A stretch of DNA of 64,000 bases, the filler included, from Dimargaris cristalligena (Eukaryota), in the NCBI GenBank assembly GCA_003614675.1. It is 3 parts of 3 records of this genome, joined end to end, with 100 filler letters (N's around TTAATTAATTAA, not from the genome) between each part and the next. Parts side by side here need not be neighbours in the genome. Positions count along the whole stretch, not along the records: positions 22,576 to 45,010 come from ML002633.1; 2 more parts are not named here. One strand, written 5' to 3'. Shown one piece after another: positions 19,590 to 58,405 of the stretch (positions are counted from its first letter, which is position 1; every line of letters begins with the position of its first letter). The notes under the pieces are model-generated. The model worked only from the letters and a program-made list of their open reading frames with translations, did not search any database and was not told the origin of the DNA. Position numbers and translations under genes: made by a program.

Positions 19590-21588
19590 ATGGTCACTAC
19601 CAGCAGCCCGCCTACTGGCGCCATTGCGCGGCCTTCTCGAATAATTCGCCAAATTCGACGTCGGCGCCGTCGCTCTAAAGCGCTCGGTAAAGCCACTGCA
19701 GCCACCATTGACCCGGAGACAACGGCGAGTAATACTCCCCCGATGGCAGAGACTCCTCACCTCACGCCATCGTCACGCGGCGCACCCCAGTATTACCTGA
19801 CTGGGTCATGTAGTTTCCATAATTTGCGCGTTTTGGCTCGGCGGAATTCCACTGGGTTTATAAATAGTGACTCTCGGAAACGGATATGGTAAGCACTACG
19901 AGCTGAACGTGCCAATGTGTAATAATGGTCCGGGAATAGGTTATGATTATCCATCCACCAAATATCATATCATTACAAATAGGCGCTTTTTCTAGTGCGT
20001 GTGCGTATATACTCACAATCCATATTTTCATTTTGCTATTGACTTATTTTGCCTTGGCCGGTCCATCTAACTACCACTAGGTCAACGTTGTTATTAATTG
20101 ACCGGATTGATGTGCCCCGACACCAAGGTAAGTATTATCAACACGTATACTGTTGCACGTATTCGAATCAAACCAACTAAACGGCGTTCGCTGTAGTCAC
20201 ATATTGACGCGTAGCTCATACCATTAACCATGCTCGCACTATGGCAATGATATTTAACCGGTACCAGTTTCAGTATTGGCCCATCCCGATGAGGCTCAGC
20301 TCAAGCTAGATGTGGGCCGCACCCATTTTCCGCTAGCACCATGTAAGTCGGCAATTCACTTTAAAATCGAGTTTTATGGCTATTGCTCATTTATCGACTC
20401 AGGTTCTGGTGTCTGAACACCCATCCGAGATATTGCCACAACTAATGTTCGATCGCCATTTCAAATTTCTCACTATTCGGGTTCATACGCTGTATGTCGC
20501 CTGGTTTAGACCAACAGGACCAACTCACCCAAATCACTCATACGCTCCTCCGGCGGAATTCCTGGCTCCATTACTACCAGGGCCTTAATGACATTTGCAC
20601 CGTGTTTCTACTCGTGCTCGGCCCCGAATTGGCCCCCGCGGCCGCTGAAAACGCATCTCTCATATATTTCCGTGATTTTATGAGCCACGATTTCCAAAAT
20701 GTGCATATTTTCCTCGGCTGCATCTACACCCTCATCCAGCAGGAGGATTCCGCCCTCTATGAATTGATTTTAGAAACCGAACTACCGCCCTACTTTGCCA
20801 CTAGCTGGATTCTAACTTGGTTCAGTCATGACTTGCGGGATATCCAGCTCGCCAGTCGTTTATTCGATTTCTTTTTGACCACCAACCCCCTTATGCCCAT
20901 TTACTTTGCCACTGCCTTGGTATTGCACCATCGCTCGGCGTTATTGGCCCTGGAGCGCGAGTTCCCCATGTTGCATCAGTACTTGGGTAAAGTAGCCGGT
21001 AATTTGGATATACCTACTATCAACGTCCTCATTGCGGAAACATACCGTCTATGGCGTAAGCATTCGGCCCGGCGGCTGTTTAAATCCGGATTCCATCGGT
21101 ATTCATGTATATCGACTTACCCGGCCCTCGAAAAATGGCTGATTCAACGAGCTGACGATGGTGATGACGTTGTCCGGAGTGATCATGGCGAACATTTGGA
21201 CTTGGCCAATTGCTTGCCGGACCTGGCCGAACCGCCTCCGAGTTTATTCGACACAGGTAACGGTGACCCAAATGACAGTACCGATACTGAAAAACCCACT
21301 CCATCTGTGAAGGGAGGCAAAAACTCTTGCGCAACGCATCCATTAGATAGACCGGCGAACCACTATGAACAGCTCACTTCCACCTGGCCCCAACCGACCT
21401 CTAATGATCCTAGCCCCGGGTCTATGCGTCGGATATGGGTTCAAACGGTCGATCGACTCCGTAATTTTAACCTTTATTATAAGCCGCATTACCATTCGCC
21501 TCAGGTCTCGCAGCAGGCTATTATGGCCATGGCGGTGTATGCAGCCGGGGCGCTGTTTTTATACCTGCAAAGCTTTCCGCCCATATAA
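19590..21588 (+). CDS. TBC-domain Rab GAP, TBC1D20/Gyp8-like, multi-exon
   Basis: Motifs GFINSDSRKRIW, DEAQLKLDVGRT (R finger), LHYYQGLNDIC (Q finger), PYFATSWILTWFSHD and RLFDFFL, plus a C-terminal hydrophobic anchor. GTAAG donors lie near 19889, 20128 and 20343. Confidence 0.9.
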
Positions 21589-22475
21589 CCCCCCCCCTCC
21601 GTGGGGTTCGTTTATTTGGGATACCTAGCTATGCCACTACAACATCCTCGTTCTATCTAACTTTCGTTCACTGAATTCTAACTCGATCTGTCCTATATTT
21701 GGCCCACTTGGATTTAAATACTAATGTACTGTTATGGCTTTTAATCAGAGCCGATTCAATACAGGGTGAGTTCAGTCCAATCGTATATAGCTTTGTTTTG
21801 AATACCAATGAAGCTAATGCTAATATACTATTTACCTTGTAAAATTTGATCCAAGTAATGAGAGTTTTGTTTTATAGTTGCACAAAATATACACAATTGG
21901 CCTTGGAAAATCTTACTGTCTGGTACTTTAGCGGACTTACTATAAATACTATATTAATATGTCTAATGGTATAAGAATATACAGTAAAACTTCAATCTCA
22001 ATTCCTACTACAAAGACAACCGGACCTCAAAAAAAAGAAGAAAAAAAGTTATAGCATTAACTATTCCCAAGTGGTTACCCACCTCAGTACTAAATTAACT
22101 AATTGGAGCTTATCTTTGCAGATCTAACGGGATACAGAGTGCATCCCAATATTTGGCCACAACTGAAATGTTACGATGTTGGGCAATGTAAATAGTAATA
22201 AAATAAAAATATAATAGAAATAATACCCTCGGGTACTCGAAAATAACTAAAACAAAATCAAACTTCCGCAGAAGTGCTATCTGGTGAATTCTTCAGCCTC
22301 GACTAAAAAGTTGTGTTTATTAATAAGATATTCTACCGAGTATTTATACTAAAACTCGGGGATTATAAATTGGTAGACGTTTTTAAAGACTAAAGGATTA
22401 AACTCAGGCTAAATAGTTTCGTTTGTATAACCAAAACAAAAGGAAAGACAAGGGTCTTCGAATAATATCATTGGT

Positions 22476-22575
22476 NNNNNNNNNNNNNNNNNNNNNNNNN
22501 NNNNNNNNNNNNNNNNNNNTTAATTAATTAANNNNNNNNNNNNNNNNNNNNNNNNNNNNNNNNNNNNNNNNNNNN
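22476..22575. other. Artificial assembly spacer N44-TTAATTAATTAA-N44
   Basis: Exactly 100 nt, with a 12-mer giving stop codons in all six frames. Identical to 45011-45110. Confidence 0.97.
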
Positions 22576-23056
22576 AGAGGGGGCGGTCGCAGAAGTGGCG
22601 GACCTGGAGATGGGTAGGGGGGGGAGTGGGTGTAACCGAATGGACAGGGGCCACTGGGGCGGCGCCACCCGCGGCCGAGAACACATCATGGCTGCCGGTC
22701 GAAGGAGTCACGGCTGCAGGAGTTGACGTGTTCGATGAGGGTGCAGACTCGGTGTATGCGCGATTCAACATGGCAAAAGGACTAACATGTTGACGGTGTG
22801 CGGATAACGGCTGGGCTGAGGTGAAGGACTGTATATATTGGGGAGACAGTGGCGGGGTCTTTCCCGTTGGCGGGGAGCCATCAGACTCGCAGGGAGAGTC
22901 AGATTGGTGGGATTTGCGGGCATCCTTCCGTCCCTTGGTGGTCGTAATTCGCAGACCAGAAGATAAACCACCCTTCTTGGATTTCTTGGTGGGGCCTTCG
23001 GGTTGGGATTGACCAACATGAGTAGATGATTGGTTTAATTTCTTCAAGAAAAACAT
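22576..23056 (-). CDS. 5' part of a gene truncated by the gap; S/P/T-rich N-terminus, product unknown
   Basis: Open frame from the ATG at 23056 (MFFLKKLNQSS...) running into the N spacer, with coding-like composition. No recognisable domain. Confidence 0.55.
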
Positions 23057-24300
23057 GCTGTTCAGGCCGGTGGGTGAGGGGGGTAGGACCAGGGGGGTTG
23101 CGGAGCCCAAACAATACCGACTAAAATTTAATCGGTGACGTGGGACAAGTCGGGGAGTAAAAAAAAAAACAAGGGGATTCGGCTACTGTGGTTAATATAT
23201 ACTATATAAAAAATAAGCTAAATGCACTAGATAAGGAGTTAAACAGCGCGCACGAGTAGACCTTGCTGCACTTTAATTAAGCTGTGCACAGGTTATGTAT
23301 ACGCCAGGGGTCGACTCGAGGCAGCTAGAAGGGGCAGTGGGCCGTGGAGTAGGGGACAGTTACAGTGTTTTGGTTGTCAAGTGGGCGCACTTGGGCAGGC
23401 ACGTCTCCGGCTACCCAGGTAGACCACTGAGGGAGAGGGGGTATAAACTTCGAGCGAGAAGGGACACACGCACGCACACACATACAAAGGTGGAAATGCA
23501 GCGACCGCGGAGCAAAGGGGGGGAGGAGGGGCGCCGTGTGGGATGGGTTGACTTGCCAAAAGCGGATGGGTGTGGCGGGGCCAAGGTGGCGGAGAAGGAG
23601 CGGGGAGTCACGCAGGCGGGCACTGATTTAGGGATTCGGGTATAGCAAGAGGAAACTGAGGGCCTTGAACGGAGCAATAAGCAAGAGATGGACTAACAAA
23701 GGAAACAGCAAAGGTTTAGGAGTCTAACTAGATAGCTATGGGGAACGCAGGGAAAGTGGGTGGTTGGTGTTAATAGAGTTTACGGGACAAAGGGAGGGAA
23801 AGGGGAGTGAGTGGGTGGGTGGGATATAATAGCTGGGAGACACTGGTAGGGAGGGCAGGAGAGTAAGCCTACGTGGCCCCGTCGGAGTTGGGTTGAAGAG
23901 ACCAACTCCCAGGAAACAAAATGAACCGAGATACTGAATAACGAGTATTACCGGGGAAGGGGGCCGCGCAATACGGTCAGGGGTTTATAAAAGACGGAGT
24001 TAACCAAAGTGAATAGAACACACACACAGATAAAGGACGACGATATCAAACAGTCAGCGATAATAGGTAAAGGCGAAGTGCACTACTATAGGGGAAGATT
24101 GACGATTATGTATTTTTAGATAGGAAGGAGAAGTACGGATTTAAAAAAAATCAATAAATCAACCACAAAGAACAGAGAACAGAACAGAACCAAATAAAGA
24201 AGATAAAGTGGAAGAGAAAGAAGGGGGAAATTATCAAAAGGGTTGCGGGGGTAGAGGCCCAGTCCGGGGCATTTATAGTAGAGGGAGGTTTGAAGGGACC

Positions 24301-24385
24301 GCATATAGCATATAGTCTATAGTCAGTAGCATATAGCATATAGTCGGTAACATATAGCATATAGTCGGTAGTCCATAGCATATAG
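24301..24385. repeat. Degenerate minisatellite, ~21-bp unit GCATATAGCATATAGTCGGTA, about 4 copies
   Basis: Tandem units are visible directly in the sequence. Confidence 0.8.
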
Positions 24386-24596
24386 AGATAATCGAGGGTC
24401 ACTCAGCAACTAAAGAGTGAAGCGACAAAGGCCAGGGAACCCGACAGTGGTTATGCATCTGAAGTGAGCGGTATAAGCGGAAAATGAAAAGACAGGGGAT
24501 GGGTGGGGCTTCTCCCCGTTGGCTAAGGGGGAGGGGAGTTGGAGTTAGAGCTTGTGTTTTTAATACTTTGAATAAATAGATAAATACCTATCAGTA

Positions 24597-24630
<34 letters not shown>

Positions 24631-25695
24631 TGTAGGCCCACCATAACCATTAGCCAAGGCCAGTGCCAACTGCCAAGGTGCAGCCTATTCAAGCCATTTT
24701 TTTTGGTCAAAGGCCAGGACCGCCGATCACGGCAATCCACCTTCAGTAACGATGGGAAGTCGAATCATGAACCGCCGCCCCCCTCCTTACTCTCCCATCG
24801 CATTAGCCAAGTATATGTAATCACAAATGACGAATCTAGTAGTTCTTGTTCATCCTCCTCTACACTTTCGGTATGCCCCCTTTCTTTCTGACTCTGCTGT
24901 GCCATTCCTTAATTTAAATGACGGATGCTGTATTTACCATTCAACGCACGGCTCATGACAAATAGCCCCTAAACCAATAACTAAGGAAGGTTGTTTAAAG
25001 ACATCGGAGGAAAGAAATGGGGGGGGGGGTGGCTGAATACCACCTCCACCACCACATACCGAATTGGTGTAGATTCTCTCTCACCTACCCGTCCGAACCA
25101 GTCTCATAAACCACTGGTAAGGTTGCACGGGGGGGGCTGTGATGGCTCCCTTGACGCTTGATTGGCCCCCTAAGGAGGATGCCAGAGAACAGCGGCGTAG
25201 GATGAATTGAAGGGAAGGGAAGGGGAGGGGGGGGTTTGTGAAAAGGTTTCTCACCAGTCCGTCGCTGGACCCGTATGGTGGTGGGTGGGGTCTAGAAAGA
25301 GGTGCTGGAATAGGTTGGGATGGATGATATTGTACAGTATTGTATTGTGGTGAATTCGATTGGACTTCTAGCATACGTATTGCCACAATTAATGAATTTC
25401 CAAGCCGGCTTACAATATGCCTTGGCATGAGCCTGGTACATGGGGGAAAGAGGGGTATTGTCGATTTGGGGCGTGCTTAAGTGTTTAGATGTATAGTGTA
25501 TTATGGAGGCCCATAGCAGGCTGGTTATTCCGACCCATCGGTGAAACCTCTCCCCTAACTGCAGCAAAACCAGTCTAAATAGTGTAACCGATCCGAACGG
25601 AGGCCCCTCCCTATTCCAGCTTGCATTGGGTCGAAAAAAAATAGGACCCGGACCAGGAATTGGTTGTATCTCCGTGGTTGACACCACTGTGAAGG

Positions 25696-25717
25696 GTGTG
25701 TGTGTGTGTGTGTGTGT
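25696..25717. repeat. (GT)n microsatellite
   Basis: Direct observation. A second GT tract lies near 25974-25992. Confidence 0.85.
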
Positions 25718-27415
25718 AGGCCAGCCACTCGGGCTCAAAAAATCAATACACCATGTTGGTGATACTATTCTTAAACGAATGAACTGTAAAACCATACAAA
25801 AAAAACTACAGCCACCCTGCCCAACACGCGTACCGTCCCCATTGGGGAGGGGGAGGCTTTTCTCAGGGAAAACGAGTACAAATAGGTAGGTCGATAAATA
25901 ATTGGGCATAGCGGTAGAGAAACCCCAAGAGTCGGGGAATGAATCTACCCGGGTAATTCAGTGCGCGCGCGCGTGTGTGTGTGTGTGTGTGTATGCCAAT
26001 GTGTAGGTGTATGTGGGTGCGGGTGTGTGTCCCCGTATGTGTAACTGTGTGCGCCGTCATCGGGATGGACAAGAGTACCAAGTAAGAGTGTGAAGACGAC
26101 TATCGCGATTCCACCCATCACTGATTACTACTATAAAACAAGTCTATAAGGTTATTCCGCCGGAAATTTAAGGTTGTCAACCTCATAAAGCTAAAAAATG
26201 TATATATTAATATTGGAACTCGCACCATCATCATACGTAAGCGGTCGAAGGAAATTCTAGACTTATGTTGTTCAATGATCCTATTTAGTGATGGCTGACC
26301 AAATAAATCATCACGCTTGGATCTTCAAATTTATCACACCAGGCCCATGGGATCCTCTCGCCTGATATCAATCAGTAGCTACTAGTACGCCAAATCCATC
26401 ACTTCAAATATTTGATGGTGTATAGATGTCTCTCGTTTAATTTTAATACATGAGCAATTGCCTATTTTGTACAATGGGCAAGTGGAAACCTGAGAGTGGG
26501 GGGGGACCCAAGCATACTTGTAACCTTATCTTAAACAATGGCGTTGTGGTTTGATCTTCATGACCACCTTGTTTTGCCATCCTTTTGATTCAGGTGCATC
26601 ATCTCGATTTCAGCCCCCCCTCCTCCCAAGACGGGATACCCCCCACCGTTCCTCCTTTACCCAGCCACCTATTCTAATTAATCAACTCGCTATTATTTGA
26701 TTTGGGCTACCTAGTAATAAGCGGTGGATAGTTCCATACTGGCTTAGTTGTTGTTGTTTTGTTGTTCAGGGTGCGTCAAATTTTAATGTCATTATGCGGT
26801 ATGCTGCAAAGTTTAAAAAGGAAGATCCCGGCAGGGGACGCTGTTTAATGGAAAGGTATGGAAAAGAAGAGATAGAGGCAGAATGGGGGTGCGTGGGTGT
26901 GGGTGAGTATGTGTTATTTAAAAATAAGATCAAGGGTGGCGAATTTGAAGATGAGGAGATTTGAGAGAAAGATATTACACGAACATGACGGTTCGTAACA
27001 ATGACGATTCCGTTAAATTGAGAGGATATGTTGATGTGGAAAGAGTGAGAAAAACGAGAAACCCCTAGTTAAAATAAAGTAGGGCAAATCACACGAAATA
27101 GTACGGAAAAATTGCGAAATATAATTTCTCTGATCGCACATGGAGACTGCCATGCGCAGGCGATGGGAGAGACGGGGAGAAAGAGAGGTGGAAATAGAGA
27201 AAAAGTGAAATAAAGAGTGAGTTAGTGAACAGAAGTAAAATACGTCGGGGGAGGGAGAGGGGGAAAGAAGGAGTTGGAGAGAGAAAAGGAGAGGAATAAA
27301 GAAAGGGAGGGGTGGGTGGTAGGAACGATTAGTTCCAGGCGGAGTTGGGCGAGGGGGGGTTGGGGGAAGAGGCATAGTAGTAGTGGCAGTTGGGTATGGC
27401 AGCAGCCTCTAATAG

Positions 27416-28933
27416 TCAATCCGATTTCACATAGTCAAACGGCGACGAGGGGTTTCCACCCGTGGTGGAGAGATCCCCGTCCGGGACCGTGGTGCCGGAA
27501 AAGACGGCCGCGGCCGCAGCCGCTGCGGCGGCCGAAGCCTCGGCCGAGTGGGCTCCCCCCCCCATACCACCCCCGGCAATGATACTCGGGGGACTGATAC
27601 CGCCCTGGTGACTCAGCGGGCTAGCGGGTATCGAACCAGAATCCCGGCGGGAGTAACTCGCGCTCGTCGGGCTCGAGTAGCCGTAGGGGTTATAGCGATT
27701 CGAGGCCCGGTCGTACACGGTGGCTAGGGCATTGCGGTAGGGCACGGTATGGCTCGTGGGGCTGGAGGAGACCAGGAGTTGGGGTGAGGCGTGGTAGCCG
27801 CGGGAAGAGACGGCAGCCGCAGCCGCGGGGTAGAAGAAATCGGCGGATTGGGTGGGTGAAGCCACCGCCGACGAGGTATGGCCAAACGTGTTAGTGGTAG
27901 TGCTGTTGGGGGTTTGCGTGGGCGTAATCTGACCTCCTCCACTCATATTCCCCGCGATAACCGAATGGGAGGTGGAAGACAGGCCAGTCGCGGCCGATAC
28001 CGTCACGGTGGACGACGGCGTGGCCGAGGACACCAGGGACATGGTGGGGTACACATTAGGAGGGGTGATATGCACTGAGGGGTCCTCAACGAACAAGGGG
28101 TACAGGGCCTCGTAAATTTTATACTGGGTGGCCAGTTGCTGGGCCCGGGTGAACGTGATCCACACCCCCTTGAGATGCATGGCCCCGACCTTGACCACCA
28201 CCCGGCCCTTTTCGTTCTTGAGGATGCCGTCCCGTTTTCCCCGCGACATGCCCACGACATTGAGTAGTTTGGTGCCGTTGATCATATTGTTATCCTGGCG
28301 CCGGGCCACCGAGTACCCCCGGGCATCGACCTGATAGCAGAGGGTCCCCTCGTCTTCCCACAGGGTCGTGGACAGCTTACCCTTGTGGTAGGCGGAATGA
28401 CCGTAGGGGTCGGTGCTGCTACCCTGCAAATGGCTGCCAGGGTGGCCGTGGAACATGGTCCAGTACGAGCTGGCCCCCGCCGGGGATGCCGGAATAGACG
28501 GCAGGGAACCCGCCGCCGTCATTAGCGAAGCCGAGGCCGCCGAGTGGGGCCAATGCATGGCGGCGGTGGCGGCCGTCGGGCCCCCGTGCCAAGAACCGGG
28601 ACTATGGGTTGTATATTGGGTCGGGAGGCGATGACTAGCGGGTAAATGGGCCAGCGAAGAGTGGTGCGGATGTCCGTGGTGCTGTTGCTGCTGTTGGTGT
28701 TGCTGCTGCTGTTGATGATGAGCGGCTACCGCGGCGGCGGTTACATGATGGTGATGATGGTGGGATACGGCTGACGGATGACCGGTGGCTGTGGCGTAAT
28801 TGGGGACCAGTCCTTGGGGGGTTTGCTGTTGGCTGGAGGCTGTGGAAGGGGAGGTGTAAGATGGGAACGCAGTATAAGCATTGATCATAGACGACGACAT
28901 GTTGGTGGTCGTCGGGGTGATGGAATTGTCCAT
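27416..28933 (-). CDS. APSES transcription factor, StuA/Efg1/Sok2/Phd1 class
   Basis: APSES domain [53 protein letters not shown]...[14 protein letters not shown], flanked by polyH/polyQ and S/A-rich regions. Confidence 0.95.
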
Positions 28934-29750
28934 ACAACAACCACAGGCAACGGGCTATCTAATTTCTTAAAAATAAAAATGGGAGGGAGGGTTAGGGGGG
29001 ACGGCGATGACGACGACGGCAACAACGACGATGCCGACGCGAATGATATGGGAAAGAGTGAGGGAGTTGAGGTGGTCAATAGGAGGAGAGACGCGCGCAG
29101 AAGGCGGGGCGGTGTCGGCAGCAGTGAAGGCTGACCGAAGATATATGTGAGGGAATAACCAACGGGGTTTGGAGGGGCACGCTACCCAAAAATCGAAGAA
29201 ACGGAGTGGGGAAGAGGGGGCAAGACCTGAGAAATACCCAAGAGCAATATGAAGAGGGGGGTGTGGTGGATGGGTATGGGTATATCGGTATCGGTCGGTG
29301 GGTATGTGTGTGTGAGTGAGTGGATGGGTGTGGGTGTGTGTATTGGTATGTTTGGGGAGAGGCGGTGGGTGGAGGACAAACTAGGAATAATAACGAAGTG
29401 AGAATGCGTCCACTAATACAAGAGAAGGAGAGACACAGCAAGGCCTCGAAGGATTTAGTACGGGTTAGGGTAAAAGATATGGGGAGAGAGAGAAAAAGAA
29501 GGGGCCGGAGACGGGGACGGACAAGCGAAGCGATGTGGAAGCTGTGCGTTTGCTGCGAGTGTAGCTAATCGATAGACAATATGTGTGTTGCATACCTCGG
29601 CACCTGCGGGATCCCCTCTGCTTATATAGGTCTATATCACCTTGACGCAGCAGTTGTAGTGAGGGAACCAGGCAAAGGGGGTTGCTACCTCGAGAAGGGG
29701 GTCACTGAATTGGGTTTGCCCCTGGTCTCGGGGAAACAGTCGCCCTCCCT

Positions 29751-29850
29751 CTTTCTCCATCCACCTCCCCCTTTCTCCATCCACTTCCCTCTTTCTCCAT
29801 CCACCTCCCCCTTTCTCCATCCACTTCCCTCTTTCTCTATCCACCTCCCC
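29751..29850. repeat. 20-bp pyrimidine-rich tandem repeat (CTTTCTCCATCCACYTCCCY) x5 upstream of the APSES gene
   Basis: Five units are read directly, with two alternating variants. Confidence 0.9.
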
Positions 29851-32800
29851 CCTTCCCTCTCTACGCCGTGGCGGAGGTTTCCACCACTGGCTGTGGCATA
29901 TCTCTCCCCTCATTACACACCCCTTCCCGCAGTTGATTTAGGTCAAAGAGGAGACCGGAGTGCCCAACTGTCAACCATATTGGCCTGGGATTATTCTTGA
30001 TCCTTCTTTACGGAGCTTACCAACCCCAACAGCTTGGCTATCTCGTTCATTGGGTGGGGTTCTTTATTAGTACACCTTTTTATAACTTAAAAAGTAAAAA
30101 AGGAAGAAAAACGCCAGCGATTACCTCCTCATGGTGGCATCTTCGCCCATTATTCCACAGTCCGATTTACCGACCCAAGGATCGATATCGAGATTCTACT
30201 TCGACAATCAGCCCTTCGGGCCAGAAAAAGGAACAGTGCGAGAGATTCCAAAGGTGCTCAGTTTGGCCCAGGGGTGGGGCCCTGGTAGCTAGCGGTGACT
30301 GTTGTCCATACCGCCACTTTTGGTGGGTTTTCTGGCCCAAGGTGTCACCGGGGATGGCTGGGAAGTCCCGAGCTGTGTAGCTGAGTGTATGAAAGGGGAG
30401 AGCGGTATGGTACGGTGTGACGGATTAGGTTGGACTGGGCTGGGACCCGTACCACTGGAATCGTCAAATGAACCCAGGTCCTGAGTTTACCCATTGTTTA
30501 AAACAACACGACAGTATCATCACTATCTGTGTCCTATATAGTGTATATATATATATATATATATGTATATGTATATGTAGGTGCTCTGTATCGGGAGACT
30601 AACCACCCCCATTACCACCTTCATTGACTGAGAGTAGTTGGCGAGGTGGAGGAAGCTCGCGGCGATTTTTACTCAATCAAGAAAGTGCCGACTCTGCTTC
30701 ACCGCCGTCCTTGTGAGAAACTATAGCAAACTAGGGCGTCGATTGAGACCGGCCGATATTCGTTTCCCTACCACGGACCCCGCCCCCTCCCCTGGCCCGC
30801 CAATGGCATGCCACTAGAGGGTTTGGGAGGTAGGCAGGCCAGCTCGCCTCGATTCCACTCGCACGTTTACCCCTCTTTATCCTCGCCTCCCTCCGCCACT
30901 CCTCCGATCTCTGTGGCCCTGTGCCCATTCCACCGGGGGTTAATGAGGGTTCTCGGGGCTGACCTGTTATCATGGCGGGGGAGAGAGGGGGTTTAGGGTT
31001 TAGTTAGGGTTTGCGCAAATGAGATTCCTCCATAGGAATTTTTAATCTATTTCTCCTCATGCAGTGCCCTGGTAAGTTCTATAGATTGTTTTTCGTCTTT
31101 CAACGTGAGCCCTGTCCCCCTCTGTATTTTTTCTTCGTCTTTCTTTTGTTTCCTTGTATATCTCACTCATTCCTCCGTCCTCTCTACTCTATTATCCCCC
31201 CCTCCTCCACTATACAGCCGGTGTGAACTTGTATGGTTTTTTTTTAGTATACCCCTCCTTATATTACTTTAATGTTATCTCGAGTGAGAAAAATTGGAAG
31301 TAAGTGGAAGACATGTGTTTGGCGTAAGCAATGGCAGGAAAGAAGAAAGGGGTTCATCGGAAACCAGCTATGGTAATTTTTGGCGTATGGAGAGTCTCTC
31401 TGACTCGTTTCTAATTGGTGGACGGACCTATCCGGATCCACAAACTCCAAGCCTTCCCCTTTCTGACTGGAAAACCTACAGTAATATACACACACTGCCA
31501 TTTTAGTTGGAATCTAAAAATATACATAGACAAACCAGCAACTGCCGCGAAGCAACCGATATGGAGCACGATTGAGTGTGTATGGTTGGTCACCATGGTG
31601 ATGAATGGTCAAGCAAGCAATAATGATGACAGCATTCCGAATGGAGAAGGTGGTCTTCACCGCCTTCTTGCTCTCGTTCTTCTCCTTCTCCTTATTCGTG
31701 GTGTCAAATGGGGATGAGGGGCATCGGCCTAATAATGCCAATGGAGGAGGGATTAGGTGGTCGTCAATTACTATTATTACTATTGAAAGGAGGAGGTGAT
31801 GTGGGGCCATTATAAGGGATGTTGGTCTATGTTACCGCTGTGATTCAGTGGGCTTATCTACGATGGAGGTGAGAAAATCACAGGTATATGAGCCGTATAG
31901 GAGGGAACCCAGAAGAAAGGCCGCGTTGGTCTGTAAGAGCCGTCCATGTAGGTGGCCTAGTCAGAAGGTTAGGCTTAAGTAACGGCGGTTCTAAGCCAAC
32001 ATAGGGAGGGGGGGTGGAGATGGATAGATGCCAACTGCAGCAGTGGAGAGTGTGCAACAATGGGGTGTATGGACGTGTAGTATAGCAAATGAGGCCAGTA
32101 ATGACGCTACCGTACTGAGAACCTATGCAACCTCCTGCATCCAAGGTTTCCATATATTTCTCCATAGCGATGGCCTTGGTGAATTAACCGGTTTCTCGCT
32201 CTCTCCTTGTCGAGGACACTATAAGCTAAAAATGAAAAATGGGATAATAGGAATAGAGAATAGAGAATAGAGAATAGAGTATAGGAGGGACAAGCACGGC
32301 ATGGGTGGTCCATTTGGGATGGGCAATTCATTGGGGAGGAGTGTTTCACTTTAAGTTCTTGGTTAATAATGGACCAAACGCCACTCAACTAGATAAAGCC
32401 CCAAATTTATTTGAGTTGAGTGGAAGTGAAGGAAAGGGAGAAAGGGTTTTCTCATTGAATAGCCAGAAATCGACGATAATAAAGCGGAATAAGGTTTCAT
32501 AAGTTCCTGGAGAAATTAGAGTCCGCGGGAGAGTAAAAGTAGAGAGGAGTTTATTACCAATGAATCGGTAGTGAGATTCGGATAACCGCCGACTGTACAA
32601 TTCCAACAATAATACACGGTGGTCGAATTAAGCCGCCCATGGACAATTTCCGCCATGGCCTCTGGTTCAGCCATCATTTCCCCAACCAGTTGAATAGAAA
32701 GTAGATGTGTGTTTGTGTGTATTGGGGGGAGGAAGGGTGGGCGGTCTAGAAGGAAATTGGGTCACATTGCCCCGACCCGCCCCCAAGTGCACTAAATTTT

Positions 32801-35428
32801 AGTTCACATTCAGCCGCCATGACGGCGGCGTATACAAAGAATACACCCGGCTGATTTCAAACAGCCTAAAATACAGTTCCCTCGTCTTCTTGGGAATATC
32901 CCCGGTATTCCTGTATACTCCCCCCCCCCACCTTCTCAACCGCCAAGTTTGCTAATAATTGTCTGGCTGCAGTATCGTTAGGGCGATTGTGTGCACCTCA
33001 GCACCATCGGATGTTTTAGAGGGAAGGGGGGAGAGGAGAGGGGGTGGAAGGGGGGGGGGGTGCTGGAACTATGCTTTTTAATTTTTCATTTCAATAGCTT
33101 GTATACAACAACTTCAATTCAGGGATCTCAATATTGACTCTATTTTACATTCACCCTTGACGATACCGGGTCGTTTCCGCGCTTATTTCTCACTCCTGCG
33201 TTACAGCAGCCCTTCCCCCCGTCTAGTTTGTGGACCGATTGCCACTCCAGGGTTAAAGAAGCGCAGCATGTATTAGGTTCAATACACTGTGCATACCTGT
33301 GCACCCGCCTTAATACCCACCACCAAATCAGGTATGGGGCGATAATACATGGCATGTGTATCACGACCAGTCGGACTAGGCCGCCCTCAGGGGGCAACGC
33401 TGCAATTCGACTTGTTTGGATGGTTTATTGATGGGCGTCCGTGTATATAGCATGGTGTATGTAGCCGGAAGTCCATATGGGCAGCTGGAAGGCATAAGAG
33501 CACCAAATTGACACATTTACGAGGACTAGCCCCGTGTGGCGGGCGTAGATGAAGAGAGCCAGGAGTAATGTATGACTAAATAAAAATATATAGAAAGAGT
33601 TGGTGGAGGCTTCTGCGGAAGGGACTGGGTGACCACCACCACTACCAGACGCACATGTGTGTTTCTGCCCAACGATTCTTGGTATTGGGGTTGATGTTGG
33701 TAGGTGATCTCGGGCATTGGCAGGAGGAAGATCTAACCAAATACTGGCTTTGGGGGGTATCTAGAAGGAAAGCCCCTGTTCTGTAAGTTATTATTACCAT
33801 GGTCATTGGTGTTCAGGCGTGTGCGGGGGGGGGGGGAAGGAGATGTACATCAATTCAAATCCCAAAAGGGGAGATCCCAGGGGCAGTTAGTACAATCCAA
33901 AGGGCGTATCACACGTCGTAATGGACGGGGGTTAGAGGGAGGTGGAAAAGGGCAGTAATAATAGAATGTAACGACGGTCAAGGCACAGAGTCCAGTCCAG
34001 ACAGAAATGATCACCAGCGAGAAGAAGTCGGTGATCAAGCGGCCGTGAGTGTCGAGGATCTAGATTCAGCCGCGGAATATAAAAAACCGCCCCTACTTTC
34101 CCAGCGTGGGAACCAACTGGTTGGTTTACATTCAGTCATTGCCGAATATAGAACCAAGGACCCTCTCTAGGCGACCCACTCCGCTGGTATGACCCATACG
34201 TAATGGGGTGTAGTGGTGAGTCGGGTTCCGCTAGGTGAGGAAGAGACGGGAGAGAGAGGTGCCCACAACCACCAGTCAGCAGCCTCGTTGTACTGAGTGA
34301 CCAGTAAATCCCCTCTTTGCTATCACCCCCATTTTAATACTCCACCTCCTCGTCGACGTCTCGGGTCTGTCATATTGGGGGTATCCCCCGCCTCGTCTCA
34401 GACTAGATCCGCCAAGTGGCCCAGTGGTGGAGAGATGCACTGTGCTACAACAGACCCGCCCAAAAATAAACTAGGCACATTGAAATAAAAATGCGAAGGT
34501 GGACACCATGGGTGGGCAAAGCAGGGTACAATGCACGAGCAACATTACACTGTAGAGTATATCGGTGGGAGTGACAGGGTATGGCGAGTGTGAGGAGGAC
34601 CGTCATGGTTATGTAGTGTTGAGCATAACGATGACACGGCCAATCCAGGTCCGGACGGTTATCCGACACCACTGAATGGGTGCCCGGTTAGCTGTGGCTT
34701 CTCCCCATTTTCCTTATTCAGCGCCGATTCGCATTGGGAATCGCGATAAGGCCAGGAAACCCCTATTTGGTAGCCTTCCTCCCCCCACCACTTGCCGAAG
34801 ATCCAGACAAATGCCACCCACCCGTACCTAGAGTTCCTCCACCCCACCCTACCCCACCTTGATTTGTCTGGTTAAAAGAAGCGAGGATGGGGAGGGGAGG
34901 GGGGATGGAGTCGCCCAAGGCCAAATATAGGCAAAAGAGGCGAGATCATGGACATTAACGGCCCCCACCTTCATTAGTATACGATACCCGGATAAGTGCC
35001 GGGTGTGAACTTTTCCCCCTAACAATGGCTTAGACCTCACCCCCGTTTTCGGCATTTTAAACCACCCCCATTTCTCATTTCTGTGTAGAGAGGGGGGACT
35101 GATAATCCACATTGGATCCGGATACGCCACTACACACAAGTTAGAACATAATAGCGGGGGGAAGAGTGACATTTACAAGTCCAAGTACAAGTCCGACCAC
35201 CACTTCAACTGTTCAACTTCTTCGGTCGACTCACTCCCTTCCGTTCACTCCATGACGCCAAGCCCACTGGGTTAGAGACAAATACGGACAGTACCCAGAA
35301 AATAAAATAAAAATAAAGTAAATCCCCCCTTTCCACCTCATTGGCACTAAAACCCTAATAGCAATACCACGCCATTGCAAAAAAAACATAATAAAAAATG
35401 GTCCCTGTTAGTAAATAGGAGGGCTTAC

Positions 35429-38400
35429 CTTCTTTGATTTCCCGCTGTTCCCGCCGAATTCCGGCCACAAACTCCGAGAAAATTTTAAGATACGGCCGGA
35501 GTGAGGTCTGCTGGGGATGGTTGCCATTCTCTTGAAGCTCAGCTAACAGTTGGGTCACTGTGGGCACCGTCAGGGGGTCAAACTCATCGAATTGCTCAGG
35601 GGCAATAGGCACGCAAACACGACCTGTATAGATGGTGGAAATGTACCGCCCCACCCCCCCCCCCAAAATATGGATATATAAGAATACAATAGGGTTAATA
35701 ATAATAAGAAGAAGAAAAAAGAACCCCGCCCCCAGAATCGCACCCATGTGTTTAGCAAGCAAGCAATAACCAGCGAGACCAACGAACAAAGAGCCGCAGA
35801 ACATATTCATGCCCATTGTATACCGTATAATACATAGTTAGGGTGATGGATCCCCCATTAGGCGATGCATGACCATAGTGAGAAGAAACCAGCCGGGGTT
35901 GAGGGGGGGGACACACGGTGGGATAGCAATGTAGGATAGTATAGCTCATCGCGATTAGCACAACCACGAAGGGAGAGGGATATTAGAGAGAGCCTGGAGA
36001 ATGAGGCGCGCACCGTAGATGATGGCCACACAATAGGCCAATAGACTGTACTGCATATTAAAGTAGACTGAGAGGGGTGGGCTGAAGTTCTCTATACAGT
36101 CCACACTTGAAGAGACCAGACCGTAGCAAGAATAGGTAGAAGTGGGCTTGAGGGATTGCGCGACTGGGAGAGGGAGGCGGTCGGGGTGGCGGCCTACCCG
36201 GTTCCATTGCCAAAATGGGACGTGTATTAGAAACCAACTGTGTGTGCGTGTGTGTGAGTGAGTGGGTGGGTGAGTGAGCGAGTGTGTCTAATGTGTAGGT
36301 GGTGTGGGAGACCAAAGTGACTTGACAATACAGACGGCCATCGAGATCCACGGAGGGACTTCCTCTCTCAGTACTAAAAAAATAAGTAATTGTAGAGTAC
36401 AGCCGGACGAAGGGCCAATATAGAAAAGAGACGGCCATTTGATATCGTGCGATTACTCAAAAAGTGGGTATGGCTTAATTCCATTACTCACCTGCCCTTC
36501 TATTTAGAAGGAAGGCATTACCGAGCCCTATACTACTAATGATGATAATAATAATAATACTAATAATAATAAAAATCGGTAAATCATGGTCGGTATTGCC
36601 TTGGCCCCCAGGGTTAAGCGTGGCGACATGGACACCTCCGGAAAATGTCGGATCTGGGCCACTTTGGACCAAGAACCACCTAGATATCGGATATCGATGT
36701 ATTATCCCACTCCCGCCATCCTCTACTCCTCGAACATCAGCCGCCCCGCCATTTGGGCCATCCAATACTCACATTCTCCGGATAAGCCCAGTCCCGTCAA
36801 TTGTCCATCAGGGTCAAGGGATGAGTGAAAAATAGATCCACGAAAGCTCATTGTACGGAACTGATTGGCGGAGGATCTCGATTTCCCGGGGCGTAAGAAC
36901 CAGTGAGTCTCAGGAGGACAGTGCAAACGGGGAACCGCGCAATTTCAAATAATCCCCCTAAAAAAAAGAGAGCAAAGCTAACTAGGGACGAAAATACACA
37001 CATACAGCACACCCACACACACACATGCCCATTCACACACATACACGCCCATCAACACACCGACAATCATCATGAATTGGGTCATTTCCATATAGGGTCC
37101 AGATCCATCGGCCAACCGGATCCATATGACTGGAGGTAACGATCCAGCCGCCCCTCTCTGCCCTCTACTCTAGCATAAAGGGGGAGGTTTAAATGAGACA
37201 TATCTATAAAAAAACCCCCCGGCCGGTGACCGACACTCGCCAAGCCCACTCAGCCCTCATTTCCCACCATTGTTAGCGGATCCCGAAATTAAACCGAGGC
37301 CCAGTTGCACTGGCGTCTTTAGCAACCAACTTCAAGGGCACACACAAAACGGCAGGTTCCCACTCTTAGCCGCGGCTGCATCATTAAGCTGCAAAATAGT
37401 ACGAAAAATCAAACGAAAAAGATTAGGGGAACAAAGCGATCTACACCCTCCCTCCGCCTCTTTTCCTTGTCCTCGTCCCCGGTCTCCTCCTCTTCGTAGA
37501 GTAAAAGTGGAGGATAAAGGTTTCAAGATGGAATAACATGGAGAGAAAGAGGAAACATCGAGGTGAGGGGTGCGTGAGGGGGTGTGACGTTCTCCATACC
37601 CAGTTTGGTCAAATCGAGCCAGGTGGTACGAACCAGGGTAAATTGGATGAGCCTGGAAACCCACGAATCCCCCCCCCACATCGAGATCCCGTAGCTCCCA
37701 ATACCCGGAAACCCAGTAAAGGGGGGTGGGCGATGTTTCAATACAAAAGTATAATATATAGAAAGCCGATTCGCAATATAAACAGCCGAATTATCCGGAT
37801 CGGCAGTCTATATCGCCCCCCTTTTTTGCTCTACTCTTTCCCAGTCTCTCTCCCATGACCAAGAATGCGCCGGACCATCAGATAGTGCATCTCTTTTTAA
37901 ATAAAAGGGGTGGTGGTACAACTTGTATTAACCGGCTAACCTACCTGTTTTGGGGTGGATGCAGAATGGGCTCTTGAGCAAGTGGTTGATCCCGGTGGTA
38001 ACCTTGTCATCCAGTCGGGGGTAAGTATATTGGAATTCGATGTCGCGTTTGACACAGTCCACCAAGTATTTCTTGTTCTTTTTCTATTACATGGTCATCG
38101 TGATATAGTCGGCCGGCCGGTTAGTCGGTCGGAGGTAGTTGTAATTCATGCAATACCGTGCCATGCCGTACCGTATCCGTATTCGCATTCGTACAGGTAT
38201 ATACAGTTACCACCATCAGTCATCGCGGAGGTGATGGGAAATAGACCGGGGATTCCGCAAAAAATGTACCAAATCGGCCATATATAATAATAACAGTAAT
38301 TAGTTATAGTGTGTTTGGGTCGCAAATTGAAACGACTGGGGTTGTTTTTAGTGTGGTATGCAACGCCAGCTCAACCTCGCATGTGGTTATGGGTAGAGCC

Positions 38401-41199
38401 GGGGTAGGCGAAATTTCATGTTGAAAGCCAATCTATAGTTTCATGTATTTAGATAAAATCCGATTTTTGAATAAAGTACTACAGTGAGGGGAGGGGGGGT
38501 TAGGGGAAAAATAATAGACCAGGGCAAGTGGGATCAGCCATCCGGTTTCAGGGGCCGCGGATCCCATCGGACATTGTAGTTCGTCCCCAGTATCATCATC
38601 CTCCCCTCCCATCAACCCTCTCTATATCCAATGGAAGGGCTGCCGCCTCGGGCGCACATCCCCCCCGCCCCGGAGGAATAGGTGCAGAGAATATAGGGCG
38701 GACTAGCCAATCCGTTGGGTCGTCAATGCGACCTTCGACTGAGTCGTAATATTCAAGCTGCCGCATGGGACAGCGACGACCCGAGCGGTGATGCCCACCA
38801 TCTGCACAGAAGCGGTCATTTTAAAAATGAGTGACAGCAACAAGGCTGCGCACACCTCTGCTCGCTGCCACTACCACTGGCTGCTACTGCCACTCCCCCC
38901 CTCTTCCATTTGCTAAGGTCTCGACCAGGAGGGCCCATCTGTAATTCTTTTAGGGTTATAAGAAAAAAAGAACGACCCCACACCGCCGTACCGGGTGCAG
39001 AATTAGTGCCCCCCCCCACCGTACACACAACCACATACACACACACACACATAGCCTAGACACGCCGGCATCCCCCTGTACCCTGCCTTCCGAGCTGCCC
39101 CTCGATGCCCACGTTACGTTCAGGAGACTGGTCACACTTGGGCAAGGTAGAACGAGGCAGGTACGGGAGCATTCGGAAAGCCATCGTCGGCACAGTCGCA
39201 GGGATGTTTATGATGACCGTTGGCAGACCGAATAGACAAGCGTGGGGGAGGGGGAGCGGCGACAACAGCAGCAGCTTGATAGGACCCCTCCCACTCACCA
39301 CCCGTAGCGCCGCCCGCACCACCGGTACAAGTCTTGGCTAATGATCCAGCCCCTATATTTCCCTTCTCCACCATAGGTCAACTGACATTTTCCCCAATCT
39401 CTAGCACCACTCCACCTTCTCCCCTCTATTCCCCCTCATTCCTCATCGTACCCATACCCCATTTGCCTACCGGACGTCATGCCAGTGGTCAGCCGCAATC
39501 AAATGATCGGGTTATTGGGAACTAGTAAGCAGTATCCGAACGAGTATGCAGACTGCAAATGTAGGTCGCTTGCTAAACCAACACGTCCCGCATCCCATGT
39601 ACCCAATGCATGCACGGCTGACCCACCCACTACTGTGTTTTTAAGCATGACATGGAAGTAGCTGGGTCGAATACATAGTCCGGTCGAATGGGACGGTGGC
39701 GTATCACACAGATAGTGCAAATGAGAGGGAGAGAGAGCTGGAGTGAAGAGAGGGGTAGGGAACCAGGCAACCGAACACTCTGAATAGCACCATACACTTT
39801 ACATTGTCCTTCCCTGTACCGAACCATACTCTACCCTTCTAAACGACCATTCACTACCGATGTAACAAAATTAAATTAAATGACGATAGCCTGACTTACC
39901 TGGGTTGTCGTTTTGGTCAAGACCGCCTCCAAAATACCCCATTTCACGGCGGACGGTTGATCGAGGTTTTCGGACCACGCGGCATGCAGTACTTTCCGCA
40001 CCTCTACCATCATTACGGCAATAGCGTGTCGTTGCCAATGACGGGAAGTGGGTTAGTAATGGAATAGCCCAAACAAGGGGATTGTATCAATTGCAATGGG
40101 CATGTGTGGGGGGCATACGTTGGTTAATTGAGATTGGGTGGTCAATTAATGACAGGGTGCAGTCGTAGGAAGACACCCCATTAGGGTGTGTAGGTTGGGG
40201 AGGGCCGAACGATAGGAAGTTGGATAAGAAATATAGATTAATTCGAATAGTTCTGCCCAATAAGGAAGGTTTTTCATTAGGGAATTGGAGGACATGTCCC
40301 CTGCTATTACCCAGACCGATAAATTAAAGTGAGTCGTTATGTAAAATGACACCCTTTACCCCCGCACAGAATGAGGTAAGTTAGGTAAATCATCCTACAC
40401 ACGGCCAACAAAAACTGTCATTTTGGTGTCTGTAATAGTAGGTAGCATGACGCCAAAGGGGGGAAAAGGAGGGGGGTAATTCCAATGGCCAAATTTCCCA
40501 GGTGGCCCAAGGTCTTTGGTATTCTACAATAGACCTATCCCTATTAGATACTACAGGTAAGAAGGAGGAGACGAAGTTACATAAGTGAATAAGAAAATCG
40601 CGGGGCCTTTAGAGACCCCGTGGCCGAAACGGCAGGCCCCTTTCGGCTGCTATTCATATTACAGGGGCACCTAATTACACGGAGGGGTATAAACGGGAGG
40701 CGCTTTTCAAAATACGAGGGTTTCCGTGGTTATAATACTTCGACCGTATAAAATATTAGAATAATAATTTTTAAAAACCCAGTGTCGTCTAGGAAACCTC
40801 TTGCGGCCGTTAAGCCAATCCCAAGTATGAAAAGACGGGGTTGGGATTGGTTTAGGAAAAAAGTAAGGGCATAGAGGGGTTCAACGCAACTCCCTTCCCC
40901 CCCATCACCCCTTCTCCACCCCTCTGCCATCCATTTGCCTCCATAAGCAGCCTCTCTACTTAAATGGTAGAGTTGCTGTTGGTGTTGAACGTGAGTTTCG
41001 TAATTCTCACCGACCAGCTTATCATTCATATCAACAAATGATAAGCAATTTAACCATAAGTAATAGTCGAACAAATAGAAAGCATGCAATCTCCCTCCCC
41101 ACCCTACTTTCCAGTTGAACACAGTGTAATCAATTTGGAACGCTGGAGCTAGTGGTTTGCTATTCCACATAAAATAAAATAAAATAAAAACAATAGTAT

Positions 41200-41237
<38 letters not shown>

Positions 41238-42311
41238 CCCTCAAGAAAGACCAGAAGGGTCTATGTGTAGAATACAGGTAGTCGAAAGGGCCCTGTTTAT
41301 CCGGCCGAGTCCCATTTAACCCCGATTTACCCCCCAATCACACACGGAGGGAAGAGAATATCCCGGTTTGGAAGATTCAAAATTACCCAGACACCTACTT
41401 TACTTGGAACCAATTTTTTGTTTCCAAGTTCCTAATCCCAACTCCCTCTAGCCCTCCCTAGCCAATGCCATCCGATATGTGGAGCTATTTCTAGCCTCAA
41501 ACTTACCTTCGTCCGGAATAATTCTCAGGATCCTTTGCCACTGTTCGGGTTCGCGCAGGACCTCTTGCTGGTTGAGCACCAAGTCCGCGAAGTGCTGGCG
41601 CACGATACCGTACGACCGGATCAAATGGGGGTGCAATTGGGCCGGCAGATTGACTTTGCGTTCCTGGTTGGAGCCCCCGCGGATCACTTCGAGGTACCCG
41701 ACAATGGCGCGCCGGCCGTCGTTGCCCAGCTGGCGAGCCTGTTCATCACTGACCCAACAATGGACGCCGCGCCGCCCACTGTACACCCACATGATATGGC
41801 GGAACCCGAAATCTTCGACCAAGGCGGCGTGAATGATATGCATCGCTACGGTCATGAACCGCCAGCACCGCCGGCAAATGTCGCCGCCCTGGCAACAGGT
41901 GCGAATCTCGTCGTAGTCGGTCATATCGATATCGAGCACCAGATCTTTTTCGGTCGGTTGGAAGGCCCCCGGCAGAACCGATTTCTTGTCCCGCGGGCGC
42001 GTCGTGTACACGGCGCCAATATCAATTTTGCTGGGGCAGAGTCGGAGGAATTCGCTTTTCATGGTGTCCCGGTCGCGGAAGGACTGGTACCGGATGTAGA
42101 TGTCGTCGCCGATGGTGAAACTGAACTCGCGGTTCTGGAATACCTTGGTAGGTTCAGGGGCCCCGTAATTGAGCCAATCGTAGTAAGTTTGGAAGGGGAA
42201 AAGCTTGTCGTAGAAGGCGCGGAGAAGGACAGGAAAATCGGGACTGCCGACGTCAAAGACCGGCGGAGGGGCAGCCTCGTCGGTGGACATGGGATGGGCT
42301 ACGGCGGACAT
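35429..42311 (-). CDS. PRI1: DNA primase small (catalytic) subunit, at least 4 exons with very long introns; terminal exon unresolved
   Basis: Exons are 42311-41507 ([42 protein letters not shown]), 40003-39900 ([10 protein letters not shown]...KW), 38083-37945 ([24 protein letters not shown]) and 35623-35429 (RVCVPI...FDPLTVPTV...TSLRPY). Splice phases 1, 0, 1 match, with GTAAGT/GTAGGT donors and AG acceptors. A GTAAGC donor follows 35429; unspliced, the frame stops at 35355. Confidence 0.93.
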
Positions 42312-45010: not shown

Positions 45011-45110
45011 NNNNNNNNNNNNNNNNNNNNNNNNNNNNNNNNNNNNNNNNNNNNTTAATTAATTAANNNNNNNNNNNNNNNNNNNNNNNNNNNNNNNNNN
45101 NNNNNNNNNN
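45011..45110. other. Artificial assembly spacer N44-TTAATTAATTAA-N44
   Basis: Same 100-nt construct as 22476-22575. Confidence 0.97.
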
Positions 45111-52376: not shown

Positions 52377-53293
52377 GTAGGATGTTAACTAGCTGGCAGG
52401 GTAAAGCAAATGGGGGTTAAAACCCCGGGTGAAAAATACAATAAATAACGGGAAGAGAGTAAAAGGCCTGGTGTTGCAGAATATAGAGGTGGCTGATGTG
52501 TGGGGATTTACTATATTAAATAATGATTTCTTGGCAGAAATGCTACCTGTTCAGGCCAGTATGTAGGGGATTGGAAACCTCGGTGAAACAGGTGAAATGA
52601 TCATAATAAATTGGACTTTAAACTTGAACGAAATCCACGGTTAGCCACTTGCCATCACTGATATATTTGAAGTGTGTCGGATTATTACTGCTTTGTAACT
52701 ATTTAGATACAGGGATATGTCGTCGGGTATAATAAGCGCCAATTCCGAATATGCAATATCATTTGCATCAATATATACAGAAGGAATACTCTAGGGATAC
52801 ATCATTGGTAAAGGGAAGGTTATTATTATAGTGAGTATTTGTGAATGACTCCTTGCGAAAAATGGGGCATATATATTTTAGCCACTAGGCGCATTTATAA
52901 GCACCAAAGAATGTCCCATTTTCTAATTATCGGATTCTGTTAAATAGACGTGCCAGTCGCTAAACAACCCTAATCAGCCCGACCAAACCAGGATACTTAC
53001 AATTAGTGTAAACCAGGTATTGTACGAAGCACCAGGCCGGCAACACTGCTTAATTAGACGAATATAAATTACTTTTAGCGATATTATTCATTTGGAATAA
53101 TTTATTAAAATACATACAGTTTAAATGCCAATTTAAATCGGGCCAAGTAGTACTGTTTGGAGTGGGGTTCCGTCAGCTACATAACCAGCCCAAAATAATA
53201 GCCTGTTGACAGGCAGGGTGATAGTCGGCGGAGAGCTCAGCCGACTCGCATATGAAATGTCTGGCATCCTCTAATGGACATCGTCTTTATACT

Positions 53294-57711: not shown

Positions 57712-58405
57712 TTAAGCGCAGAATGAGGAACTGATCCCGCACCAGCCCCATTGGCTGCAGCACTGGCCGGACGGGCACGCTTTAGTGGCGCTGCAAGAGC
57801 CTTCGGGTGAGCCATCAGTGGGATTGGTAGGCTGAGGGTTGATTTCGCCACTGCCTGAGCAAGAACCACTCTGGCAGCCAGTACCGCAGAAGACGTCGCC
57901 TACACCACAGTAACCCCACTGACTACAGCATTGGCCATCAGGGCAAGTCGTATCAAAGTCGCAAGTGCCATCGGTGGAGACGCCCGTGGAATCAATAGGC
58001 AGGGGGTTGCTTCCATCACTTGCCGAACACGGACCGTTCAGGCAACCGGTCCCGCAGAAGGTGTCCCCGAAACCACACCAACCCCACTGGCTACAACACT
58101 GACCATCCACACAGGTATGAGTCGCATCGCATCCTACAATCATGTAAATATGCCAATATCCATGCAAATTACACCTGGGTATTTCAGTTAGTTTCACATT
58201 ACGGTGCGTGGCACTCTAATGGTTTAAAATCAGATAGCAATAGTCCACATGGTTAGGAAAGAAGGTCACTAAACATTATTCACGGCTGTCTGAATATAAT
58301 AATGAATGTAAATTACATACCACCACCGGGAAGCGAGCCTTGAGCCGACACTAGAAGGGGGGCCGCGAGAGCCATGAGAGTCAGAGCAATAACGAAGCGA
58401 ACCAT
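57712..58405 (-). CDS. Secreted chitin-binding protein with three hevein/CBM18 repeats, 2 exons
   Basis: Exon 58405-58321 encodes the signal peptide [21 protein letters not shown] and ends at a GTATGT donor. Exon 58133-57712 continues in phase with three GQCCSQWG(W/Y)CG motifs. A minus-strand TATAAAA lies near 58570. Confidence 0.92.

Follow-up and report, generated by a model that had tools for sequence, protein, structure and literature searches.

The stretch analysed here (the window) comprises 64 kb of DNA from Dimargaris cristalligena, a mycoparasitic zoopagomycete of the order Dimargaritales and not a dikaryon; its positions 22,576-45,010 come from record ML002633.1, and 100-letter filler joins the adjoining parts. 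Two genes that lie in tandem on the minus strand of this record are considered: PRI1, predicted to encode the small, catalytic subunit of DNA primase, which spans 7107 nucleotides (nt) from 42311 to 35205, and, downstream of it, a candidate developmental regulator of the APSES family. The coding part of PRI1 amounts to 1305 nt and its introns total 5802 nt, or 82% of the gene span. An earlier note on this DNA had read the pair as a candidate fungal genomic regulatory block, in which the introns of a housekeeping gene would host distal regulatory elements of a neighbouring developmental gene.

The PRI1 gene and its exon-intron map

When the five PRI1 exons are joined, they encode a protein of 434 amino acids (aa), 433 of which are identical to those of the GenBank model KAJ1977855.1; the exon-intron map is already present in this public automated annotation. 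The coordinates that the earlier note had given for three long introns (41506-40004, 39899-38084 and 37944-35624) are exact, with canonical GT-AG ends, and splicing at these positions reproduces KAJ1977855.1. Its claim that the introns lengthen toward the APSES gene has to be given up, as a fourth intron of 162 or 74 nt, which had been missed, is the one nearest to that gene. The introns have GT-AG ends, with branch-point-like motifs in introns 1 and 2, and in-frame joining of the exons restores the orthologous protein, so that the three long ones can be described, from these features, as putatively ordinary U2-type spliceosomal introns. The sole mismatch to KAJ1977855.1 is residue 282 (L/P) and corresponds to base 39964, where the window has A and all four of the DNA runs described below have G, giving Pro in place of Leu; the A is possibly a base error or a private variant of the window's assembly.

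The identity of the gene was examined exon by exon, single exons being compared with solved structures. Exon 1 (41508-42311) is 100% identical over 268 aa to KAJ1977855.1 and to RKP36556.1, both from D. cristalligena and the latter titled 'DNA primase p49 subunit [Dimargaris cristalligena]', and the next best matches listed are those of Tieghemiomyces parasiticus (77%), Dimargaris xerosporica (72%) and Dispira parvispora (67%). It aligns to residues 7-249 of human PRIM1 (4rr2_A, E about 4e-86), with an identical DIDMTD motif; exon 3 aligns to residues 291-327 (E 1.4e-9), the Asp of its PRLD motif falling on residue 306 of 4rr2_A, and exon 4 to residues 329-360 and beyond (E 1.7e-8 to 1e-5). 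We take the DxD in exon 1 to be an active-site motif and the Asp of PRLD to be catalytic. Exon 3 is 83-89% identical to its counterparts in relatives and exon 4 up to 80% (T. parasiticus P0242). Exon 2 has tblastn matches in T. parasiticus (E 1e-4) and D. xerosporica (E 6e-4) and none in the PDB, for which reason it is regarded as a variable linker segment. These alignments argue for a full-length Pri1/PRIM1 orthologue that is co-linear with the human protein, and PRI1 would be a normal, essential primase gene with inflated introns. Among the best 120 of 3293 matches (E<=0.001), there is a single D. cristalligena primase cluster.

Comparison with relatives also bears on what the introns might conceal. 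Eight Dimargaritales primase models, searched against the window with tblastn, match the same exon blocks, and in the four full-length proteins the four blocks are contiguous in protein coordinates (14-262, 263-297, 298-347 and 344-410 in T. parasiticus P0242), so that no coding exon is hidden in the PRI1 introns. In the same comparison the relatives' primases end soon after exon 4, and exon 5 is the least certain exon of the map. The T. parasiticus primase (P0002/P0242) and one APSES protein of that species (P0127/P0245) are each present as two near-identical copies on different contigs, which fits a duplicated or non-haploid assembly.

One public model of the gene is considerably shorter. 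RKP36556.1 (UniProt A0A4P9ZSK6; 274 aa) runs through exon 1 and six unrelated residues to its end; exons 2-5, and with them the PRLD motif, are missing from it, and it is cut off at this point because the gene is mostly intron.

The assembly itself was examined with Logan contigs from four DNA runs of two studies placed on the locus, which are possibly the window's own source and are not fully independent of it. Single contigs cover 35606-41159 (run X1), 35691-41144 (X4), and 30588-36527 together with 36582-41159 (X2); intron 2 thus lies within single contigs of X1, X2 and X4, and intron 3 within those of X1 and X4. The depth of X2 is flat, at 150.4-156.5 over 30588-41159 (at least 90% likeness), as for single-copy DNA. 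Every listed short-read contig breaks at 41160-41242, a stretch of 83 A/T-rich nt that includes (TA)n and is bridged by the window alone, as would be seen if the gene were an artefact of assembly or annotation, with exons brought together from different loci or belonging to a pseudogene. Against such an artefact, contigs of two studies span 35606-41159, the independent GenBank model has the same structure, and the exons are conserved and follow one another in order and in frame, with one primase cluster among the matches listed; we consider it highly improbable. Between X2 and the window there are nine substitutions in 16 kb (five intergenic, three intronic and one in the APSES coding sequence), which are too few for any inference of constraint.

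Table 1. Positions and lengths of the features of the PRI1-APSES locus, with the introns of other genes in the window
Feature	Positions	Strand	Length	Remarks
PRI1 exon 1	41507-42311	-	805 nt	ATG at 42311; PF01896, E 1.3e-35
PRI1 intron 1	40004-41506	-	1503 nt	GTAAGT...TAG; TACTAAC 47 nt before acceptor
(TA)n tract inside PRI1 intron 1	41205-41236			
PRI1 exon 2	39900-40003	-	104 nt	tblastn matches in closest relatives
PRI1 intron 2	38084-39899	-	1816 nt	GTAAGT...TAG; GACTAAC 38 nt before acceptor
PRI1 exon 3	37945-38083	-	139 nt	PRLD motif
PRI1 intron 3	35624-37944	-	2321 nt	GTAGGT...CAG
PRI1 exon 4	35429-35623	-	195 nt	Human PRIM1 alignment
PRI1 intron 4	35267-35428	-	162 nt	Length in GenBank-type model; 74 nt with alternative acceptor
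PRI1 exon 5	35205-35266	-	62 nt	Including stop, as in KAJ1977855.1
Non-coding stretch, PRI1 3' end to APSES ATG	28934-35204		6.27 kb	Mean hexamer coding score -39
APSES (StuA/Efg1-like) gene	27416-28933	-		Single exon, 505 aa (27419-28933) plus stop; ATG at 28933
Non-coding stretch between 3' ends of RabGAP (gyp8) and APSES genes	21586-27415		5.8 kb	
FAP7 introns			about 297 and 178 nt	
ATP12 introns			<=155 and <=214 nt	Upper bounds
Lipase intron			<=280 nt	Upper bound
SprT-like gene introns			<= about 350 and 500 nt	Upper bounds

The APSES gene and its flanks

The APSES gene carries a KilA-N/APSES domain (PF04383, E 1.6e-7), which is present in all but one of the 120 APSES matches listed. 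Several of these matches are named stuA or ascospore maturation 1 and show 65-87% identity in the domain, and others are titled 'HTH APSES-type'. The product is predicted to be an APSES transcription factor of the StuA/Efg1/Asm-1 type, and thereby a candidate developmental regulator. The domain, the stuA-named relatives and the shared minus strand agree with the earlier description of a StuA-type gene downstream of PRI1 on the same strand; the description of the two genes as facing each other was mistaken, since they are in tandem and the 3' end of PRI1 lies 6.27 kb upstream of the APSES ATG. As had been stated, the 12.6 kb upstream of this ATG are non-coding apart from small PRI1 exons, of which there are four (104, 139, 195 and 62 nt) instead of three.

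The D. parvispora APSES protein aligns from residue 1 exactly at ATG 28933, and tblastn with the APSES proteins of seven relatives gave no further coding match upstream. At 29744-29849, about 0.8 kb upstream of the ATG, a pyrimidine-rich unit of 20 nt is repeated 5.3 times (89% matches). An Rfam match to mir-1277 at 30532-30598 was rejected as a chance hit over (TA)n (29 bits against a gathering score of 81, E 0.097). Two short motifs were counted over the whole window: WCGCGWNM, which we take to be the StuA-type consensus, occurs 13 times against 27.5 expected and not at all in the PRI1 introns, and ACGCGT, presumably the MCB consensus, 4 times against 7.1 expected; no cluster of either was found. 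On the downstream side, none of the 20 open reading frames (ORFs) of at least 70 aa between 21347 and 27434 matches Pfam at E<=0.01. The non-coding DNA that separates the RabGAP and APSES genes also holds a solitary, complete 5S rRNA gene (22046-22164, minus strand; Rfam RF00001, 80.6 bits, E 5e-16), which suggests dispersed 5S genes in D. cristalligena.

Content and composition of the long introns

The long introns of PRI1 are single-copy DNA that shows no sign of a transposon, of coding sequence or of an Rfam family. Of the 69 ORFs of at least 70 aa between 29079 and 41260, none matches Pfam at E<=0.01, which bears out the claim that the introns hold no transposon ORF, and self-blastn of the window returned for them only a (TA)n match, with no repeat shared within the window. 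Their tandem repeats are short microsatellites, and the protein domains, terminal repeats and multi-copy sequence by which transposon-derived DNA is recognised are absent from them. Kilobase-scale additions to fungal introns commonly come from insertions, and the intron DNA could in principle descend from old insertions, of transposons or other elements, that have decayed beyond recognition. An APSES-like stretch of 25-40 residues in intron 2 (39016-39132, minus strand) could be the relic of a local duplication, but was itself rejected as not significant: tblastn gave E 0.47-0.91, with none of 60 mononucleotide shuffles reaching the score, and a domain profile of 120 sequences gave E 0.16, with 1 of 30 block shuffles scoring higher. 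Given the ORFs without transposon domain (0/69), the lack of a repeat shared within the window and the flat X2 depth, decayed insertions are thought to be an unlikely source.

Coding potential was assessed with a hexamer score trained on window genes, which averages -50, -31 and -41 in introns 1-3 and +30 and +33 in held-out coding sequence. A few intronic windows of 180 nt are positive, among them 38670-38849 (18.0) and 36586-36765 (12.3), at the low end of coding-like scores (held-out coding minimum 8.9). They might be taken as traces of independent transcripts hosted by the introns, such as long non-coding RNAs, small genes or a distal APSES promoter with a 5' leader exon, and stuA in Aspergillus does have complex transcription units with long leaders. 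Both strands score in these windows, which suggests an effect of composition in a GC-rich patch; in addition, the introns have no Pfam match, an Rfam search at E<=0.1 found nothing in them, and the relatives' APSES proteins reveal no upstream coding exon. Hidden transcripts are therefore regarded as improbable.

In base composition, part of the intron DNA stands apart from most of the window. Non-coding GC is at least 0.48 in seven of the nine two-kb windows between 22 and 40 kb and in none of the 15 measurable windows elsewhere, and the window 40001-42000, which holds most of intron 1, has a non-coding GC of 0.436, like ordinary intergenic DNA. The strand-symmetric 4-mer profile of the PRI1 introns correlates at 0.84 with each APSES flank, compared with 0.65-0.71 with other intergenic DNA, and the two flanks correlate with each other at 0.87; after normalisation for base composition, the introns reach 0.91 and 0.90 with the flanks, against 0.86, and the flanks 0.96 with each other. 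Introns 3 and 2 thus form part of a compositional block that measures about 19 kb and has the APSES gene near its middle. The likeness between the introns and the APSES flanking DNA, which the earlier note had ascribed to all three, holds for introns 2 and 3 and fails for intron 1.

Regional inflation or regulatory landscape

The observation on exons and introns holds, and it is more than chance. None of the seven further introns measured exceeds about 0.5 kb, and those of ATP12, FAP7 and the lipase gene are short, as had been claimed, the bounds for the ATP12, lipase and SprT-like genes being the spacing between Pfam-matched exons (Table 1); gene models and introns of D. cristalligena were measured in this one window, which has about 13 Pfam-supported genes in its 64 kb and several deserts of 5-6 kb. 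According to the accessible text of PMC8042348, gene density in D. cristalligena (242 genes/Mb) is the lowest, and intron length the greatest, in the comparison set of that study, where species median intron lengths span 29-197 nt.

Among relatives, D. parvispora has a complete PRI1 of 439 aa on a contig of 3706 nt, so that all its introns together take up at most 2386 nt, compared with 5802 nt here, and the long introns are not conserved order-wide. Other members of the order may differ from it, as four of the eight Dimargaritales PRI1 models end exactly at long-intron junctions: RKP36556.1 after exon 1, that of D. xerosporica (295 aa, partial) after exon 2, and, after exon 3, that of Dimargaris verticillata (378 aa) as well as one of the T. 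parasiticus copies (350 aa). PRI1, the best APSES matches and gyp8 are on different contigs in all five relatives, and the same is true of the short-read assemblies of D. cristalligena, where genes known to be adjacent are split; contig linkage is thus uninformative. A metagenome scan for Dimargaritales primase loci yielded two loci of 47-48% identity, which are not relatives and were not used.

The explanation that we consider probable is a neutral or regional inflation of introns in a gene-sparse genome, specific to the lineage. The positions of the PRI1 introns would be shared within the order Dimargaritales, and the introns would have grown to 1.5-2.3 kb by gaining unique non-coding DNA in which homopolymers and microsatellites are frequent. 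An active enzyme would require their removal, since the PRLD motif is on exon 3 and the conserved segment that follows it on exon 4. The inflation would be a property of this chromosome segment, through a bias toward insertion or slippage or because selection against non-coding DNA is weak, and would not be specific to PRI1: introns 2 and 3 lie inside the block that also surrounds the APSES gene, which makes the inflation look regional. We infer that the extra intron DNA is largely non-functional for the APSES gene. Other deserts occur in the window, at 21.6-27.4 kb between two 3' ends and at 58.2-64 kb, where no ORF bears a Pfam domain.

Several observations weigh against this explanation. 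The three long introns are about 3-15 times longer than the seven others measured in the window, and 8-12 times the largest species median (197 nt) in the available part of PMC8042348, a comparison made with a median. They also sit together in one gene beside the APSES desert and are not a random sample of the genome. Ending at a junction is the usual behaviour of gene predictors and short-read assemblies at long introns, and the truncated models therefore hint that Dimargaris and Tieghemiomyces have long introns in common, which would not be needed under neutral bloat. Finally, the likeness of introns 2 and 3 to the APSES flanks is as compatible with a functional or chromatin domain common to them as with a mutational bias of the region.

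Some of the same facts would be expected if the PRI1 introns, or at least introns 2 and 3, formed part of a cis-regulatory landscape of about 19 kb serving the APSES gene, with PRI1 as a linked bystander that carries enhancers. The APSES gene lies in the middle of the block of GC-richer non-coding DNA that runs into introns 3 and 2, there is long non-coding DNA on either side of it (6.27 kb upstream, 5.8 kb downstream), and in three other Dimargaris and Tieghemiomyces assemblies the models end at the same junctions, which is compatible with conserved long introns. There is also some fungal precedent: the intergenic regions bound in the Candida albicans Wor1 circuit exceed the typical length about 5-fold (PMC2924316, accessible text), and a review mentions, in the part available, elements resembling conserved non-coding elements near morphogenesis genes in some fungi (PMC5728398). 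On the other hand, StuA-type motifs are fewer than expected in the window and absent from the PRI1 introns, intron 4, the nearest to the APSES gene, is short, and D. parvispora does without long PRI1 introns. Moreover, the 5.8-kb desert downstream of the APSES gene has a 3' end on either side, and a promoter-proximal role is therefore not needed for long non-coding tracts here. The testable evidence leans mildly against the regulatory-block reading, and the support for it is circumstantial. An enhancer-bearing bystander is in our estimation quite unlikely here, and there is a slightly smaller chance still that the GC-richer domain (22-40 kb, about 19 kb) is a small genomic regulatory block of the APSES gene reaching into introns 2 and 3 of a bystander primase. 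The evidence reaches a shared compositional domain, and no further.

Comparison with known systems leads to a similar position. Genomic regulatory blocks are described, in the available text of PMC5728398, by arrays of conserved non-coding elements together with conserved synteny of target and bystander. The metazoan examples treated there resemble the present locus in that a developmental-type transcription factor gene in a gene-poor stretch lies beside a housekeeping gene with large introns; they differ in extending over hundreds of kb and in being defined by element arrays and synteny, whereas the stretch considered here covers about 20 kb, is known from the sequence of one genome, and includes a PRI1 gene whose D. 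parvispora counterpart has no long introns. The Candida albicans Wor1 circuit, which includes EFG1, likewise offers an APSES-family morphogenesis regulator with long non-coding flanks, the master regulators there having long UTRs and upstream intergenic regions, but according to the accessible text of PMC2924316 the long regions are intergenic and bound by regulators, while here the introns of a neighbour are in question, from sequence alone. Among the titles and abstracts listed for fungal genomic regulatory blocks and Dimargaris introns, none deals with this locus, nor is it mentioned in the accessible text of the papers cited here. The locus is a new instance of known things, namely long spliceosomal introns and the gene-poor surroundings of a fungal regulator.

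In the remainder of the window, two Zn2Cys6 transcription-factor genes lie in tandem at 50142-52388 and 53297-55750 (both minus strand) with 0.9 kb between them; the DNA flanking them is short (0.9-2 kb), and a desert is thus not the setting of every regulator gene in the window. An ORF at 57715-58215 (minus strand) contains three chitin-binding repeats (PF00187, CBM18-type), and the accessible text of Ahrendt et al. 2018 (PMC6784888) describes a CBM18 expansion unique to D. cristalligena. The 5.8-kb stretch at 58.2-64 kb includes an inverted repeat (59024-59337/60173-60486) with arms of 314 nt that are 73% complementary and 835 nt apart, which may be a decayed foldback or mobile element. At 22476-22575 and 45011-45110, two runs of 44 N each, 12 bases apart, coincide with the filler joins (176 N in total).

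The long introns of PRI1 break automated gene models, which is a warning about the shortened primase models of the Dimargaritales, and gene catalogues and completeness scores in this order likely under-call such long-intron genes. The locus is moreover a concrete setting in which it can be asked at little cost whether the introns of a neighbour serve a fungal developmental regulator as regulatory space. If this were true, an animal-style, long-range regulatory architecture would exist outside Metazoa and plants.

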